This document shows, in pieces, positions 27,241 through 46,218 of a stretch of DNA of 64,000 nt (position 1 is the first letter of the stretch; each line of letters begins with the position of its first letter). Source of the stretch: an uncultured Pirellulaceae bacterium (GTDB taxonomy: Bacteria; Planctomycetota; Planctomycetia; Pirellulales; Pirellulaceae); assembly GCA_964394305.1 (NCBI GenBank), contig CAYMWL010000021.1:7196-71195 (forward strand), written 5' to 3'. A model generated the notes under the pieces. That model saw nothing but the letters and a program-made list of their open reading frames with translations, did not search any database and was not told the origin of the DNA. The translations under genes were made by a program, and so were the position numbers.

Positions 27241-29049
27241 TCAAGGTGCCATTGGGGCAGGAGCGGCTGCTGCAGGCACTGGTTTGTCGGCCGGCTTGGC
27301 CGGTTCCACCGTTTCGGCTTCTGCTTCCTTCTTTTCCTTTTGAGCAACCTTCCGTTCGGTTCGCTTGGCTTGTTTGACAAGCTTGGGAACGAGCTTGTTC
27401 AATTCTTCCGCAGGAATTGCATAGGTAGTCACTCGCCCCGCGCGGGCGATGTTCACGCCCACGACCTTGCCGTCGAGATCAAGCAGCGGGCTGCCGCAGG
27501 CTTGCGGAATGATCGCCGTGTCGTGTGCAAAGACGGCTGGAAAGCCTGCGCGACGCACACTGAGGTCGCCCGAATATTCTTCGTCTTCGTCGACAAACAG
27601 CACGAGTTCCAACTTCACATCTAGTTCTTTGTCGGCCCTCCTCAGCTTCACTCCCACTTGCTGGCCGGGCTTCGTTTTTTCCATGTGTTCAAACAGGGCC
27701 TCTGCATCGGCGATCTTCTTGCCTTCGAATTCGACCAGGCAGTCATCGACGCGAATGCCGGCTTTCGCCGCCGGGCCACCGAAGATGACTCGCTTGATCT
27801 TCACGCCGCCATCGTCGGCATCGGCGACTTCCACTTTCATGGCGCCACGCGGCGGCGACGTCGGCTCGACCTTGCAGACCGCATTGCTGACGACACCGAG
27901 CGACAATGGCGTGGCGTCGATATCCGGGGTGATCAGCCACGCGCCGGGTAGCGGCGATTTTTCGGCGAAAGTGACGGGCTTTAACTTGGGCGCAGCTTCG
28001 ATTTGTAGCAGCGCCAGATCGTGCTCTTCGCTGCGGGCGACAATCTTGGCCGCGAGCGGTTCGTCGTCGATGAGGCACTGAAGATCGCCTTGCAACACGC
28101 TCAGCTTTGTCATGATCAAGCCCCGGCGATTGACGGCCAGGCCCATGGCGACCGCATTTTCATCGGCGAGAACGTCGACAATCGAACGCTGCAGCGGCGA
28201 TGTGAGTGGCTCCACACTGCCCAGCGTTTCGGCGCTATCCTTCGCCAATCCATACCAATCGGGCGCATCGACAAACCAACTGGCAACGATGTCGTAGAAC
28301 GAAAGAATGGAATCCGGAATGAAGTTCAACAATTCGAATGCCGCGTCATAAGCCTCGGGATCGAAGGGTTCGCCGATTTCTTTGCTGGCGACGAAGTCGT
28401 CCCAGTTCTTTTGATAGATCTCGACCGGCACATGCTGATTCTCGAGGACATCGAGGCCGATGTTGGAATGAATGCCGATGACTTCGCCCTGCAAATTGAA
28501 CAGCGGGCCGCCCGAATCGCCGGGATATACCGTGGCATCGGTCTGCAGTCCCGCGAGTGGGTCGCTGCCATCGCCCACGACCAAAATTCGCCCCAGCCGC
28601 AGCGGCGGCTTGCGATCTTTGAAGATGCCGCCCGGATGCCCCGTCGCTAAGCACCATTCGCCGGCTTTGGGTTTGTCTTTGGCCATTTTTACATGCGGCC
28701 ACTTTTCATCTTTTTGGATTTTGGCGAGGCCCGCGTCCCACGCATGGTCCATGCCGAGCGACTTCGCCTTCACCTTGCGACCGTCGCTGAGTTCCACCTC
28801 AAAGATATCGCCCGGCACCATGATCACATGCGCGGCTGTGAGGATGTAACCATCATCGCTCACGATGACGCCGCTGCCGGAGGAGTCTTCCAGATGAATG
28901 CCGACGGTGGCGGCGATCATCTGATCGAGATGCTGGCGCGTTTGCTCTTGGGCCTTTTTCAAATCGGCGAGCGATGGTGGTTCGGCTGCCGCCGTAGCCA
29001 ACATTACGAAAGCTAGACACGCGGCGCCGAAGAATTTGCCGAACTTCAT
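27241..29049 (-). CDS. Exported trypsin-like serine protease with a second degenerate protease domain and PDZ
   Basis: Domain 1 has the full triad (LTAAHV, DAGL, GDSGGP). Domain 2 has TKLS, DLALL, QACGSP and is split by a PDZ (GGPAAKAGIRVDD). Start 29049 follows a GGGGAG RBS-like sequence. Confidence 0.88.
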   Translation of the reverse strand: MKFGKFFGAACLAFVMLATAAAEPPSLADLKKAQEQTRQHLDQMIAATVGIHLEDSSGSGVIVSDDGYILTAAHVIMVPGDIFEVELSDGRKVKAKSLGMDHAWDAGLAKIQKDEKWPHVKMAKDKPKAGEWCLATGHPGGIFKDRKPPLRLGRILVVGDGSDPLAGLQTDATVYPGDSGGPLFNLQGEVIGIHSNIGLDVLENQHVPVEIYQKNWDDFVASKEIGEPFDPEAYDAAFELLNFIPDSILSFYDIVASWFVDAPDWYGLAKDSAETLGSVEPLTSPLQRSIVDVLADENAVAMGLAVNRRGLIMTKLSVLQGDLQCLIDDEPLAAKIVARSEEHDLALLQIEAAPKLKPVTFAEKSPLPGAWLITPDIDATPLSLGVVSNAVCKVEPTSPPRGAMKVEVADADDGGVKIKRVIFGGPAAKAGIRVDDCLVEFEGKKIADAEALFEHMEKTKPGQQVGVKLRRADKELDVKLELVLFVDEDEEYSGDLSVRRAGFPAVFAHDTAIIPQACGSPLLDLDGKVVGVNIARAGRVTTYAIPAEELNKLVPKLVKQAKRTERKVAQKEKKEAEAETVEPAKPADKPVPAAAAPAPMAP

Positions 29050-29485
29050 TTGCGAACTCCCCCAAGGCAGATTCTTCGCGGGCAAGATCCCTGCAAAGCG
29101 GCCTTGGAACTGTCCTGAAAATGCGAATCAACGTCCGTGCGGCGAGGGAGAGAAGCCGAGTTCGCCGCCGATCAATGCAGCGGCAAAACTCGCCTGCGCC
29201 AGGCTCCTATTGTGATCGGAGGTGTGTAATTTGCCAAGAAGAGTGTGACTGCGGCGGACTGCGGAGCGGCGATGTGACTTGAATTATGCCAGGAGATGTT
29301 GTCGCTTATCAGCCAACTTCTTCGGCAATTGCGCATTGACGACCGGCCGAACAGTATGCAATTGATGCGTACTCGCGGGCAAACGCCACAAGCGATCGTG
29401 CCTTACCCCAGTTTGACCGCCGCTGATGACACCATCAGGCGGTTAAACGCTATTTCTTGTTGCCCGAATTGCACGTCGGCCACCA

Positions 29486-29668
29486 GTTATCGCGACGTTT
29501 TAAAGCGATGCTTGAAGCCAAATGATGGGGTAATCACGATGAAATCTACCAGTGACAAAACACGTTGCGAAGGGTTATCGTGCTGTTATCACCGCCGCTC
29601 GCCGAATTGCTGTAAATCACAATCAGCAATGCGGTTGCGACATTCAAAAGCGGCTCGAAAGTGTTATC
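29486..29668 (-). other. Non-coding GATAAC-box element, copy A
   Basis: GTTATC on the plus strand at 29486, 29574, 29585 and 29663; aligns with 45114-45299. Confidence 0.7.
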
Positions 29669-29706
29669 GCCCTGACCCCCGAAGGAGTTCGGCTCGGACT
29701 GCCGCA

Positions 29707-31083
29707 CTACCTGGGAGCTTCTGGCGGCGACTCGAGAATGGCGCGCTTGGCATCGAAGGGATTGCCGAGTGGATCGAGCAGTGCTTCGGTGATTCGGCGG
29801 CGGCGGACTTTGCGGACCTGAGCCCAGAGGCCGTCGAGTTCAACCATATCGCCACCCTTGAGGTTGTCGTCGCGGCCGGCGTTAAGCCAATCGTTGAGGG
29901 TCATGGCATCGGGGTTATCGCCGCCGAGTTCGGGGCGATTGAGTTGCGTGCGGAGTTGTGCGAGCGTCACTCCGCCACCCACGACCAGTTGCTGGCCGGC
30001 AGGGCTGATGTGCCGCGGCAGGCGATCGAATTCGTCCTGAATATCGCCGACCAGTTCTTCGAAAATATCTTCCTGCGTGATCATGCCGACGATGCGGCCA
30101 CCTTCGCCACGGACCAGGGCCAAGTGCTGGTGTTCGGTCGTCATGCGGCGGAGGGCTTCGCTGAGCGTCATGTTTTCCGACAGGCTGCTGATCTGGCGGA
30201 CGATTTCACGGATGACTGGATTGCCCGGATGCGTCTTGGCGAGCAGCACCATGTCTTTGAACGTGACATAGCCGATGATCTTTTGCGGGTCGCCCCGCTG
30301 CACGGTCACCGGAAACCGCGTGTGCAAGTCCATGTGGGCGATGATCAGGTTTTCGCTCAGCGTGGCGTCGGCGACGACCATCACGATGTCTTCTTCGGGA
30401 AGCATGATGTCGGCGACCTTCATCGCCGACAGGCGACTCGCCTGCAAAATGATCCGCTCTTCTTGCATACCGATGGCCTGGCTGGCACGGAGCAAGTTTA
30501 CCTGGGCCCGCAGTTCATGCAGTCCGACGGCCCGGTGATCTTCTTTTTGCTTCATGAACGGCAGGCGTTCGACGAGAGCGACAAACTGCGTGGTAATGGA
30601 CTCGAAGAACCAGACGGCTGGATAAAAAATCACCGAAAAGACCCACATCGTGGGGCTGAGCAGCAAGCAGACGAGTTCGGCGTTTTTGAGCGCGAAGACC
30701 TTGGGGATGAGTTCGCCGACCACAATGGTGAACGCCGAGATCGGCAGCACTACGCAAGTGATGGCGACGAAATCGGCGAAGTCCTTGTGGATGCCAACCT
30801 TGGCGAGGACACCTTCGAAATAGGGTGCTAGACTTTCTTCGGCCGAAGCGCCACCGAGGGCTGCCGCGATGGCCCCAACCAGCGTGATGCCCAATTGCAC
30901 CGCGGCCAGGCTGGCTTCCATGCGACCCTTCATGCGGAGCGAGACGCCGGCACCGCGGCGTTTTTGCTCGGCTAGCAGTCGCAAACGGTCAGTCCGAACC
31001 GAGGCCAAAGCCAATTCATAAGCGGCGAACATGCCGTTGAGTAACAGCATGACGATGATGACCAAAACGACCGTAAGACTCAT
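29707..31083 (-). CDS. Hemolysin/CorC-HlyC (CNNM + CBS) family membrane protein
   Basis: LNGMFAAYELALASVR; VQLGITLVG; GELIPK; HTRFPV; EDIFEELVGDIQDEFD. Start MSLTVV at 31083. Confidence 0.9.
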   Translation of the reverse strand: MSLTVVLVIIVMLLLNGMFAAYELALASVRTDRLRLLAEQKRRGAGVSLRMKGRMEASLAAVQLGITLVGAIAAALGGASAEESLAPYFEGVLAKVGIHKDFADFVAITCVVLPISAFTIVVGELIPKVFALKNAELVCLLLSPTMWVFSVIFYPAVWFFESITTQFVALVERLPFMKQKEDHRAVGLHELRAQVNLLRASQAIGMQEERIILQASRLSAMKVADIMLPEEDIVMVVADATLSENLIIAHMDLHTRFPVTVQRGDPQKIIGYVTFKDMVLLAKTHPGNPVIREIVRQISSLSENMTLSEALRRMTTEHQHLALVRGEGGRIVGMITQEDIFEELVGDIQDEFDRLPRHISPAGQQLVVGGGVTLAQLRTQLNRPELGGDNPDAMTLNDWLNAGRDDNLKGGDMVELDGLWAQVRKVRRRRITEALLDPLGNPFDAKRAILESPPEAPR

Positions 31084-31323
31084 TCCGCGCGATTTCCTGA
31101 AAGCCTTGAGGCAAAACGCCTTGGCAGCAGGATAATCGAAACCAAGGGATGGGATAAGGCGGGAGATTAGTGCGGGGGCATGTTCGCTGGAACGCCAAAA
31201 AGTGGCCCGACCAGAGAGGCGAGGGAGTGCAGGGTGAAGCATTCCCATCGCCAACCCTCGCGGCAGCAATATACTTAAAAGGTCCACCTTATTTACGTTG
31301 CATGCTGTACTCCAGCAAAGGTT

Positions 31324-45000: not shown

Positions 45001-45083
45001 TGGTGCCCGATGCCTCGGCGGGCTGTGCCTGCAGCTATCAGAATCGAAGTTGGATGGCGCTGTCGGGGACGGGGGATGAGTGA
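42060..45083 (+). CDS. Exported PQQ-binding-like beta-propeller protein with central methyltransferase-like domain
   Basis: Signal peptide + DWPMYRGD; Trp-docking repeats (ALDAATG..RW); LDLDCDDG insert; second propeller starting WTHQYSD; C-terminal YGCG, RPGCW, GCACSY. Confidence 0.85.
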   Translation: MTNKLLPLLLYLFVGTATAADWPMYRGDAERTGYTAEPLPAKLSLVWTYRPTHPPTPAWPRDDRMLFDRASDVVISGGVAIFGSSSDSQVIALDAATGAHRWTFFADAPVRFAAAIWHDKAFIVSDDGMLYCLAVADGKLLNQWRGGPTDDLILGNGRMVSRWPARGGPVIRDDIVYFAAGIWQSERIYLTAINAETGKQIWQNDKAGQIYMPQPHGGAMANSGVSAQGYLVANDNELIVPTGRAVPAGFARRSGEFLYYHLQANGHIGGTQTVVADDTFYNGGSAFRNENGALVAKLGVGSIAATPAGTLFGTKKDVRLVKLIEKTAPDRKGVPTKTMDHQVEWSVADVDGSASLIVAGHVVVAGGSISGGNGKVTAIDVQSQKILWSAEVAGIPYGLAAANGKLYVSTDRGEIHCFATEASSKPAVITLPQTKIVANAQATKAAQEILRKTSVTEGFCLDLDCDDGELAVALAQQSKLQIYAVHSSAEDVAALRKKLAAAGLYGTRITVHQGTRDKLRYGKYFADLVVSSQSLKSGPIPSTADKIPSALRPAGGQLCSGKVGNMETFQRPALARAGSWTHQYSDLGNSSCSTDEIVKGDLRALWFRDVDLEMPQRHGRGHAPLFQDGRMFVEGMGALRAVDGYNGRNLWEFPLPNIQAAYNADHLSGTSVTGSNFCVADGNVYVHDKLQCYRLDAATGRKLGEFKTPVNKDRKPGSWGYIASDGKLLFGSVANPQHVARFAWKFADVSELWGESATFFALDAKSGELRWKYDAEESIRHNAITIGNGHVYLIDRAIAKEDKLTTVDKAGKLPAVAAVKHSPGQIVALDINTGEIAWKGERDAFGTVLSLSPQHDTLLMSYQSTRFKLPSEVGGKLAAYRASTGKPLWQKEAKYVTRPLINDRTIYAQGGSWDLITGEEKGFTLNRSYGCGQFAGSKHMLLFRSATLGYLDLSRGSGVENYGGIRPGCWINALPVGGLVLVPDASAGCACSYQNRSWMALSGTGDE

Positions 45084-45113
45084 AAAACACCGCCGCCTTG
45101 TACGGGGGAATTT

Positions 45114-45374
45114 GATAACACTTTTTGTGTCTGCTTGAAAGTTGCAACGGGTGAATTGCGCAATACTTGCGCATGAACAGGGAACAAGTTTGATAACATC
45201 GCGACCCTGGTTTCGGAGGACCGAAAACCGACGCAAGCGGTGTTTTATTAAGGACTTATGTCGCAGTCGGCATATCTTCGTTGTTAACATCGCGATAACC
45301 CGTGATAACCACTGACAAGTGCTCAATAAGCCTTCGTGCCAATTTGATAACGCTCTCTGATAACACCTGATAAC
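45114..45374 (+). other. Non-coding GATAAC-box element, copy B (convergent intergenic region)
   Basis: GATAAC at 45114, 45192, 45294, 45304, 45346, 45359 and 45369, plus GTTAAC at 45283; all on one strand. Confidence 0.75.
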
Positions 45375-45537
45375 AGGCTCCCGCCGCCAATTGCCGCAGT
45401 GCTTGGTGAAGCGCGCAGCAACAACCAGCCTCAGGCACGTCTAGCGCCAGGGTGATGGATATCTGATCTTTTGTATATATTGCCCAGATCCCAGGGCACG
45501 TCAAGATTGGCTGGCCAATTACACCTGGAATTAGCAG

Positions 45538-46218
45538 CTAGTTCCCTGGCACTCGCGCCGTTTCCACGCGCGGCGGAATGAGCAGCGTTACGCCCAGCGG
45601 CAAGATCTCGGGATCCGCGAGGCGATCGAGATTGGCCACGTGGATTTCTCCCGCGCGGCCGCCATCGCCTAGATAGCGTTGCGCTAAAGCAGTCAGCGTG
45701 TCCCCTTCGACGATACGATGTTTCCGCCACAGCGGACCTGGTTTGGCTTGAGCTTCTTTGGCCGCAGCAACCTCATCGGCCGACGGGAGTAAGGGTTCAT
45801 GCACCGGCAAGTTCGTGTTGGGACCGTGGCTGATTTTGGTCGGACCGGGCACTTGCGGCGAAGAACCGGGATCCGAGCCCACCGGCACGAGCAGCGATTC
45901 GTACGACATGGGTAAGAACGGCGGCGCGGGCAATGCTTCCAGCGGCGGTTCTGTGGCCGGCACGGTTTGAAATGCGGCGGGCCGTGTCAACCGCCCCGGA
46001 GAAGTAGAAACCGGTGGCAGTTCTGGAGCAGGCGACTGACCGGGCTGCGAATGAACTTGCAGCGTCAAATCCTGCGGCGGCGACCAGGTGAGCGCGGGGC
46101 TCTCGTGATCGACGGACAAGGGCTGCGGCGCGACGGGCCGCGCATGACGAAAGGGCCACGCGAGCGCCACGCCGCCGGCCATCACCGCGCCGGCAATGAC
46201 AAATCGTTTGTAACTCAC
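45538..46218 (-). CDS. LysM peptidoglycan-binding protein
   Basis: N-terminal TM, Pro-rich linker, C-terminal LysM (HRIVEGDTLTALAQRYLG...N...L.DP..LPLGVTLLIP). GTG start at 46218 preferred. Confidence 0.85.
   Translation of the reverse strand: MSYKRFVIAGAVMAGGVALAWPFRHARPVAPQPLSVDHESPALTWSPPQDLTLQVHSQPGQSPAPELPPVSTSPGRLTRPAAFQTVPATEPPLEALPAPPFLPMSYESLLVPVGSDPGSSPQVPGPTKISHGPNTNLPVHEPLLPSADEVAAAKEAQAKPGPLWRKHRIVEGDTLTALAQRYLGDGGRAGEIHVANLDRLADPEILPLGVTLLIPPRVETARVPGN

Follow-up and report, generated by a model that had tools for sequence, protein, structure and literature searches.

BOX, ERIC and BIME elements are mosaic intergenic repeats with promoters or protein sites, and arrays of transposase-binding hexamers lie subterminally in Ac/Ds (AAACGG) and En/Spm, while the ends of Tn7 and Mu carry multiple TnsB and MuA sites, respectively. 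The Correia repeat-enclosed elements of Neisseria contain promoters, an IHF site and an RNase III target (PMC2649163), and the prokaryotic MITEs have been reviewed (PMC10969869). Direct repeats of variable number are bound in yet another way by BldC, a small winged-helix-turn-helix protein (HTH_17/MerR-like) that forms head-to-tail oligomers on variable direct repeats one turn apart with the consensus AATTxxxx(C) (PMC5859096), and the filaments formed by Xis/RDF proteins are related to binding of the BldC type (PMC11963761). We describe here an array of the hexamer GATAAC in an uncultured Pirellulaceae bacterium that shares features with several of these systems. A mosaic intergenic repeat with a promoter and protein sites is a known kind of element, as the Correia elements demonstrate (PMC2649163). 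Neither the GATAAC family nor its phased hexamer arrays seem to have been described before, and a search of the literature on GATAAC in Planctomycetes found nothing relevant.

The array lies in a stretch of 64,000 nucleotides, referred to here as the window, from a genome (G000) of 7.96 Mb with 57.8% G+C in 162 contigs, whose gene content resembles that of planctomycetes. Reading of the sequence and a pattern search both place seven GATAAC boxes on the plus strand, at 45114, 45192, 45294, 45304, 45346, 45359 and 45369, together with a single GTTAAC at 45283 on the same strand. This is the composition that an earlier note on this DNA had reported for positions 45114-45374, and the box spacings of 11, 10, 13 and 10 bp and the recurrence of AATTTGATAAC at 45109 and 45341 are also as it claimed. 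Its rough estimate that well under one box would be expected agrees with our calculation, which gives 0.034 boxes per 261 bp at the genome-wide GATAAC density of 1.3e-4 per strand and a chance of P ~1e-14 for at least seven boxes in 261 bp. The window as a whole contains 24 GATAAC against 12.9 +/- 3.7 in shuffled sequences, and none of 100 shuffles reached 24. The gap that holds the array does run between two stop codons, as the note had it: it covers 454 bp (45084-45537) between the stop of a plus-strand gene for a PQQ/BamB-type propeller of 1016 aa, itself preceded by a ThiF-family gene, and that of a convergent minus-strand gene for a LysM-domain protein.

A genome-wide scan for clusters of the box, which the earlier note had recommended, returned 31 same-strand clusters of at least three GATAAC boxes in G000, and the array thus belongs to a dispersed family. 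Its copies, ~31 in this genome, are diverged, and the window itself has another of them at 29.5 kb, in inverted orientation. The extended consensus derived from 122 array boxes is y-Y-T/C-GATAAC-a (yTGATAACa). Read in the direction of GATAAC, an element starts with a C-run/G-run hairpin, box 1 (often GATAACACTTT), a (T/C)GCAA block and a CTTGC(G/A) block; box 2 (TTGATAAC) follows 78-80 bp past box 1, then comes a variable stretch with more boxes, and the far end consists of GCGCAGCA...CCAGGG, GATCTTTTGT and ATTATC-N16/17-GTCAAG. Across the genome, 22 pairs of boxes are 78, 79 or 80 bp apart, where ~0.3 would be expected for each spacing value. The genes on the box side are mutually unrelated (fabF-like, ahcY, proS, groES, topA, sulfatase and DUF1501 genes). 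In 24 of the 31 clusters the box-side gene is co-oriented with the internal promoter described below; both window copies fall into the convergent class, 30 and 38 bp past a stop codon. Because 10 of 16 loci in the congener G003 have a convergent gene on the box side, the element is not obligatorily a leader. The iteron-like site that had been offered as one option fails on these data, given ~30 chromosomal loci and no rep gene among the neighbours: plasmid and phage iterons are repeats of 17-22 bp at one origin, with a rep gene and an AT-rich unwinding region, whereas the GATAAC box is a hexamer.

The window copy extends over ~420 bp (45085-45505); it opens just past the propeller stop codon and closes with the -35 hexamer of the promoter inside it. 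These limits come from nhmmer, which aligns the copy end to end, over ~420 nt, with copies on contigs C160 and C12 (E values of 1.5e-16 and 5.6e-10, respectively); iteration of the search gathers 10 copies. Homology among the copies stops at GTCAAG, which is the -35 read from the other strand. An imperfect short GC hairpin (ccgccgccttgtacggggg, 45090-45108) stands before the first box, and most copies have a similar C-run/G-run hairpin a few bases ahead of theirs. We considered an intrinsic terminator at this hairpin and rejected it, as no consistent T-run follows on either strand in most copies. The boxes begin with a terminal unit of 84 bp (45114-45197, plus strand), in which box 1 (GATAACACTTT) at 45114 is followed by TTGAAAGTTGCAAC at 45135-45148, CTTGCG at 45166-45171 and, exactly 78 bp from box 1, box 2 (TTGATAAC) at 45192. 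The internal cluster (45283-45374, plus strand) comprises the GTTAAC and the remaining five GATAAC boxes, and its spacings of 11, 10, 42, 13 and 10 bp are consistent with a genome-wide period of ~10.9 bp.

The same 84-bp unit recurs on the minus strand at 29585-29668, within the partial and inverted second copy (29486-29700, minus strand). This copy lies 38 bp past the stop codon of a CNNM/CBS transporter gene, has boxes at 29663-29668, 29585-29590, 29574-29579 and 29486-29491 (plus-strand coordinates), and shares GATAACACTTT-N11-TTGAAnGTnGCAAC and the exact 78-bp box distance with the copy at 45 kb; no promoter module was detected in it. Its neighbours are a gene for a CNNM/CBS/CorC-type transporter (29707-31287) and one for an HtrA-like Trypsin_2/PDZ protease (27241-29085), both on the minus strand and hence on the same strand as its GATAAC boxes. 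A composite transposon made from the two inverted window copies was also considered and discarded, since the synteny with G004 described below covers only the operon at 38.0-45.1 kb and not the 15-kb interval.

On the strand opposite to the boxes, the far end of the element reads cTTGAC(a/t)-N16/17-(G)ATAAT-G-nACAAAAGATCA, which is a near-consensus sigma70 promoter with a conserved initial transcribed sequence. This module is conserved in 10-12 copies; it points into the array, and promoter and boxes are invariably on opposite strands. The sigma70-type promoter of the window copy occupies 45477-45504 on the minus strand (-35 TTGACG at 45504-45499, a 16-nt spacer, -10 CAATAT at 45482-45477) and aligns with TTGACA-N16-GATAAT on C160, TTGACT-N16-GATAAT on C14 and others; because its -10 has only three of six consensus matches, this copy fails a consensus promoter scan. 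The earlier note had argued from the two flanking stop codons that the gap cannot be a promoter for either neighbour; the flanking stops are confirmed, but the family does carry a promoter on the opposite strand, degenerate in the window copy. Of the 31 arrays, 8 are preceded in the sense direction by a match to a strict promoter pattern, where 1.6 would be expected, and TATAAT, TACAAT and TAGAAT are the most sense-biased hexamers upstream of G000 genes, so canonical sigma70 promoters are in use in this genome. Other promoter readings were tried as well: an ECF-type or sigma70 promoter in the direction of GATAAC has no consistent -10, and a sigma54 promoter (GGCAA..TTGCA) in the 78-bp unit was dismissed by eye, as the spacing and the GG vary between copies.

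Past the -10, the presumed start of the transcribed region is marked by the conserved ACAAAAGATCA (45464-45474, minus strand), and nACAA(A/T)(A/T)G is found after the -10 in all copies of the promoter module. Further along in the promoter's direction stand a hairpin (45425-45457, minus strand), whose position is kept and whose sequence varies, and just beyond it an invariant block at 45412-45420, CGCGCAGCA on the plus strand and TGCTGCGCG on the minus strand. In the 10 aligned copies of this promoter-proximal module TGCTGCG is unchanged, and the 44 nt before GCTGCG form a hairpin at the same place in all ten (mean z -1.28, individual values down to -5.3); when RNAalifold was applied to a MAFFT alignment, it failed to recover the structure. 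The promoter-leader module (TTGAC-N16/17-GATAAT-G-nACAAAAG, hairpin, TGCTGCGCG) also occurs where there are no obvious arrays, at C2:86.1, C1:47.4, C12:51.6 and C78:22.7 kb. It is then found 330-470 nt upstream of ACP/fabF, dnaE and rpmA genes, with a Shine-Dalgarno sequence and ATG directly after it in two cases.

Among the five genomes of the genus, triple-box arrays number 11 in G000, 58 in G002 and 79 in G003, whereas G001 has 2 and G004 has 0; the counts for 36 other genera are ~0-2, and a reversed-pattern control gave ~0. BLAST of the element returned no match in 40 relatives, plasmid collections or phage collections, and the exact unit pattern, searched over 185,579 species genomes, gave only scattered single matches at chance level outside G000. 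Housekeeping proteins are 93-98% identical across the genus, and the elements are at different places. At ahcY, ~390 bp with four boxes separate the trpF stop codon from the conserved ahcY promoter in G000 and ~40 bp do so in G001, with flanks too diverged between the two genomes to define junctions or a duplication. At proS, an array stands just upstream of the conserved CTACAAT promoter only in G000 among the relatives searched. The window operon (38.0-45.1 kb) and its G004 counterpart are collinear as far as the propeller stop codon, where the synteny stops. The element is an insertion and not a conserved operator.

The earlier note had also wished to see whether the gap is conserved in relatives. 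It is not in G004: there the orthologous operon (propeller proteins 76-84% identical) is separated by ~40 bp from a convergent gene that differs from the LysM gene, and neither boxes nor element are found in between. This bears directly on whether the array is a cis-element specific to its locus, serving the mod-hesA-propeller operon or the LysM gene as a terminator, 3' regulator or titration site, or is simply a chance cluster. It does lie directly after the last stop codon of the operon, and the remark that it follows the mod-hesA operon is true of its position; no tie goes with it, however, as the array is one of ~31 copies, some 30 of which are paralogs beside unrelated genes, and the G004 operon does without it. 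Chance would require an event with a probability of ~1e-14. We regard a locus-specific or accidental origin as extremely improbable, and the array is nothing specific to the neighbouring mod-hesA operon. On balance we judge it somewhat probable that a lineage-specific mosaic repeat without coding capacity, of which the GATAAC array forms the box-bearing module, has been inserted at many intergenic sites, some 30 in this genome and 60-80 in two congeners.

Copies in G003 are stereotyped, with boxes at 0, +13, +39, +112 and +123 and phased T-tracts, and some loci carry two tandem modules. The 19 G003 loci that we compared are 70-85% identical and include no near-identical pair. In G002 we found tandem arrays of 12-13 units, each unit with a GATAAC core, and in both G002 and G003 a TTGACA-N17-TAnnAT promoter stands at the far end, again pointing into the array. 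Two of the G002 tandem arrays (L129 and L130, at C720:9656-9839 and C859:4758-4992) have 12-13 units of 16 bp (GATAACCACTCGGGTT) and 19 bp (GATAACCCCTTTGATCCTT), and each is situated between a consensus sigma70 promoter and a gene start. Separate from the GATAAC element, a REP-like palindrome, TCATCTCGCTCCGCCGAGATGA (also CATCTTGCGGAGCAAGATG), recurs in many G003 intergenic regions and is frequently found within the variable stretch of GATAAC elements, as at L106, L108, L113 and L120 (e.g. ~900-1100 in L120).

With Correia, BOX, ERIC and BIME elements and MITEs the GATAAC element has in common that it is small, non-coding, exclusively intergenic and present in tens of copies, that it is patchy between close relatives with occupied and empty orthologous sites, that it is modular with a variable number of internal units, and that it combines a promoter able to read into neighbours with presumptive protein-binding sites. 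It differs from them in being larger (~420 bp), in lacking terminal inverted repeats or a recognisable target duplication, in being marked by an asymmetric hexamer in 3-16 direct repeats and not by a palindrome, and in the high divergence of its copies, which keep only boxes, spacing and promoter. It is like a MITE in being a small non-coding multi-copy sequence with presence/absence differences (arrays in three of five congeners) and unlike one in that no terminal inverted repeats bracket the window copy. REP, BIME and REPIN units, which co-occur with a cognate RAYT (Y1 transposase) gene, are imperfect palindromes of 20-40 nt that form hairpins, whereas the boxes are asymmetric direct repeats. 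An inverted-repeat search over 45040-45560 found no pair that joins the two element ends; the aligned copies end in the hairpin and a GATAAC box on one side and in the -35 hexamer on the other, and no target-site duplication was found flanking the element.

The boxes may serve mobility rather than gene control, as subterminal sites of a transposase or recombinase acting on a non-autonomous transposon with the enzyme encoded elsewhere. The likeness to Ac/Ds, En/Spm, Tn7 and Mu lies in many short asymmetric motifs at irregular spacing within 100-300 bp near an element end, and in non-coding derivatives scattered in the genome. Occupied and empty orthologous sites, a copy number from 0 to ~80 in one genus and modules duplicated in tandem all speak for such a role, and of the 12 Y1-transposase hits in G003, 5 are no more than 6 kb away from an array, where ~1.4 would be expected, a weak lead. 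However, the arrays of those transposons are at both ends, inverted, beside terminal inverted repeats, whereas the GATAAC element has a single array at just one of its ends and lacks both terminal inverted repeats and an autonomous partner; no target duplication was seen, no coding master copy was found, and the 19 G003 loci contain no near-identical copies that would mark recent movement. Y1-transposase (Y1_Tnp) hits are present in all five congeners (5-12 each), the two array-free ones included, and none in G003 is flanked by arrays on both sides. Moreover, the boxes have been kept in old, diverged copies, which suggests host selection. It seems unlikely to us that the boxes are transposase sites.

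The option of a polymerizing DNA-binding array, raised in the earlier note, gains support from the spacing of the boxes and from box modules without a conserved RNA fold. Spacings between adjacent same-strand boxes in G000 peak at 9-13, 20-22, 30-33, 42-45, 51-55, 67, 78-80, 90 and 102 bp, and Fourier analysis assigns a power of 21-36 to periods of 10.9-11.3 bp, where the 99th percentile of the null is ~9, a result that comes from G000 only and from copies that are paralogous and thus not independent. When a single spacing was taken per locus (41 loci), the median power was 8.2 against a null 99th percentile of 6.5, and when the window's contig was left out, the peak was 18.2 at 10.9 bp. The G002 tandem periods of 16 and 19 bp and the 13/26/73/11-bp layout in G003 depart from a simple rule of 10.5-11 bp. 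RNAalifold on the box modules (the 78-bp units of G000 and 16 G003 modules) gave an empty consensus with energy 0 on both strands. The fixed spacing without covariation and the helical period favour a protein-DNA complex over a single-stranded RNA. A DNA-binding array is the best-supported reading of the boxes. Readings of the box as a DnaA box, an IHF site or a Fur box were rejected, as they have only GATAA/TTATC in common with it and neither flanks nor spacings fit. A coding reading (GTT ATC for Val-Ile, 78 bp as 26 codons) was rejected too: 78, 79 and 80 bp all occur, stops are found in every frame, and the copies share no common peptide and no ORF.

The element could also be a ncRNA gene of ~400 nt or a long leader, transcribed from the internal promoter. 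Its single-stranded GUUAUC(A) sites would then either sequester an RNA-binding protein in the manner of CsrB or base-pair with the anticodon loop of tRNA-Ile(GAU); the earlier note had listed a ncRNA gene as well. In three species a near-consensus sigma70 promoter at the far end always faces the array, the orientation of the boxes relative to it is strict and would be explained equally well by an RNA motif GUUAUC, and the next gene is co-oriented with the transcript in 24 of the 31 G000 clusters. The presumed start site is followed by the conserved hairpin, which hints at a function of the transcript, and by the invariant UGCUGCGCG; the 12-13 tandem units of G002 have non-helical periods of 16 and 19 nt, and UGAUAAC equals the anticodon loop of the G000 tRNA-Ile(GAU). 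As in CsrB/RsmZ, a promoter is followed by several hundred non-coding nucleotides with many copies of one short motif. In contrast to CsrB/RsmZ, the motif is not in conserved hairpin loops, its spacing has DNA-like helical phasing, and neither a terminator nor a fold signal is present. No consensus fold presents the motifs in loops, the window element taken as a whole is folded no more stably than its shuffled versions (z -0.39 and +0.32), no intrinsic terminator follows the array, and Rfam gave no match at gathering thresholds or at E up to 10. A period of ~10.9 bp in G000 has no rationale in a single-stranded RNA, it is difficult to see why one should keep a fixed 78-nt spacing with no covariation, and the downstream gene is convergent in 10 of 16 G003 loci. 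The ncRNA option has a promoter and a promoter-proximal hairpin in its favour, but it is weakened, and we consider it unlikely.

The G000 tRNA-Ile(GAT) genes, on C3 and on a second contig, have the anticodon loop CTGATAAC, and the box with its preferred 5' T corresponds to U33-C39. This match is probably a coincidence, yet the loop is a conceivable pairing partner for GUUAUCA. At ~80.3-82.1 kb of C3, outside the window, ~17 tRNA genes are packed into ~2 kb, among them one for tRNA-Ile with a TAT anticodon and one for another, divergent tRNA-Ile(GAT); this tRNA array resembles those often carried by mobile DNA.

If the boxes are bound as DNA, BldC sites offer a comparison. The GATAAC repeats are likewise direct, variable in number per site and on one helix face (~10.9 bp period in G000), and the box is an AT-rich core in GC-rich DNA; genes of the HTH_17 type are numerous (15-27 in each genome). 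Variable direct repeats about one turn or multiples of it apart, as bound by BldC and Xis, are demonstrated for G000 only, and the box consensus is yTGATAACa rather than AATTxxxxC. GATAAC boxes further differ from BldC sites in often being several turns apart instead of contiguous, and in residing on a dispersed repeat with its own promoter instead of in the promoters of a regulon. Each of the five congeners has HTH_17 genes, whether it carries arrays or not, and these genes do not track the arrays. Presence or absence was therefore of no use in naming the binding protein from either the HTH_17 or the Y1_Tnp family, since both are present in all congeners.

A DNA-binding array may work as follows. 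The YGATAAC boxes are predicted sites for an asymmetric sequence-specific protein, which would bind head to tail on one helix face and build a nucleoprotein platform of variable length. As the family's strong promoter fires into this platform, the platform would most likely silence or block that promoter, and it may also serve the spread of the element. The window copy is probably a passenger insertion with little effect on its neighbours, because its -10 has decayed and what it faces is the 3' end of a gene running towards it. A bolder proposal, which we consider unlikely, is that a subclade of the genus has an undescribed two-part system, consisting of a portable promoter with an operator array and of a candidate filament-forming protein on phased YGATAAC boxes. 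Insertions upstream of housekeeping genes (proS, ahcY, groES, topA, fabF and sulfatases) would then give these genes common lineage-specific control, and copies in convergent gaps, the window copy among them, would be silenced orphans.

If the boxes were docking sites of one protein, the family would show in nature how a repeat element spreads a regulatory circuit, in which a strong promoter and a multi-site operator travel together and land before unrelated, often essential genes. Regulatory rewiring between very close species, with housekeeping proteins 93-98% identical, would then be directly testable, and the boxes would point to an uncharacterised DNA-binding protein with a simple code of 7-8 bp. 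If they are not such sites, the family still has value for annotation, as dense motif arrays in this genus would be recognised as modules of repeat elements and not as regulators of adjacent operons.

G000 also contains a second GATAAC-bearing subfamily, defined by the inverted pair GTTATC-N12-GATAAC (8 occurrences) and a common block, ccgactgaattttaaagtcgac, with sites at C3:33.5 kb, C4:123.7 kb, C34:31.7 kb, C104:20.9 kb and C105:18.9 kb. Distinct element families therefore reuse the same box.
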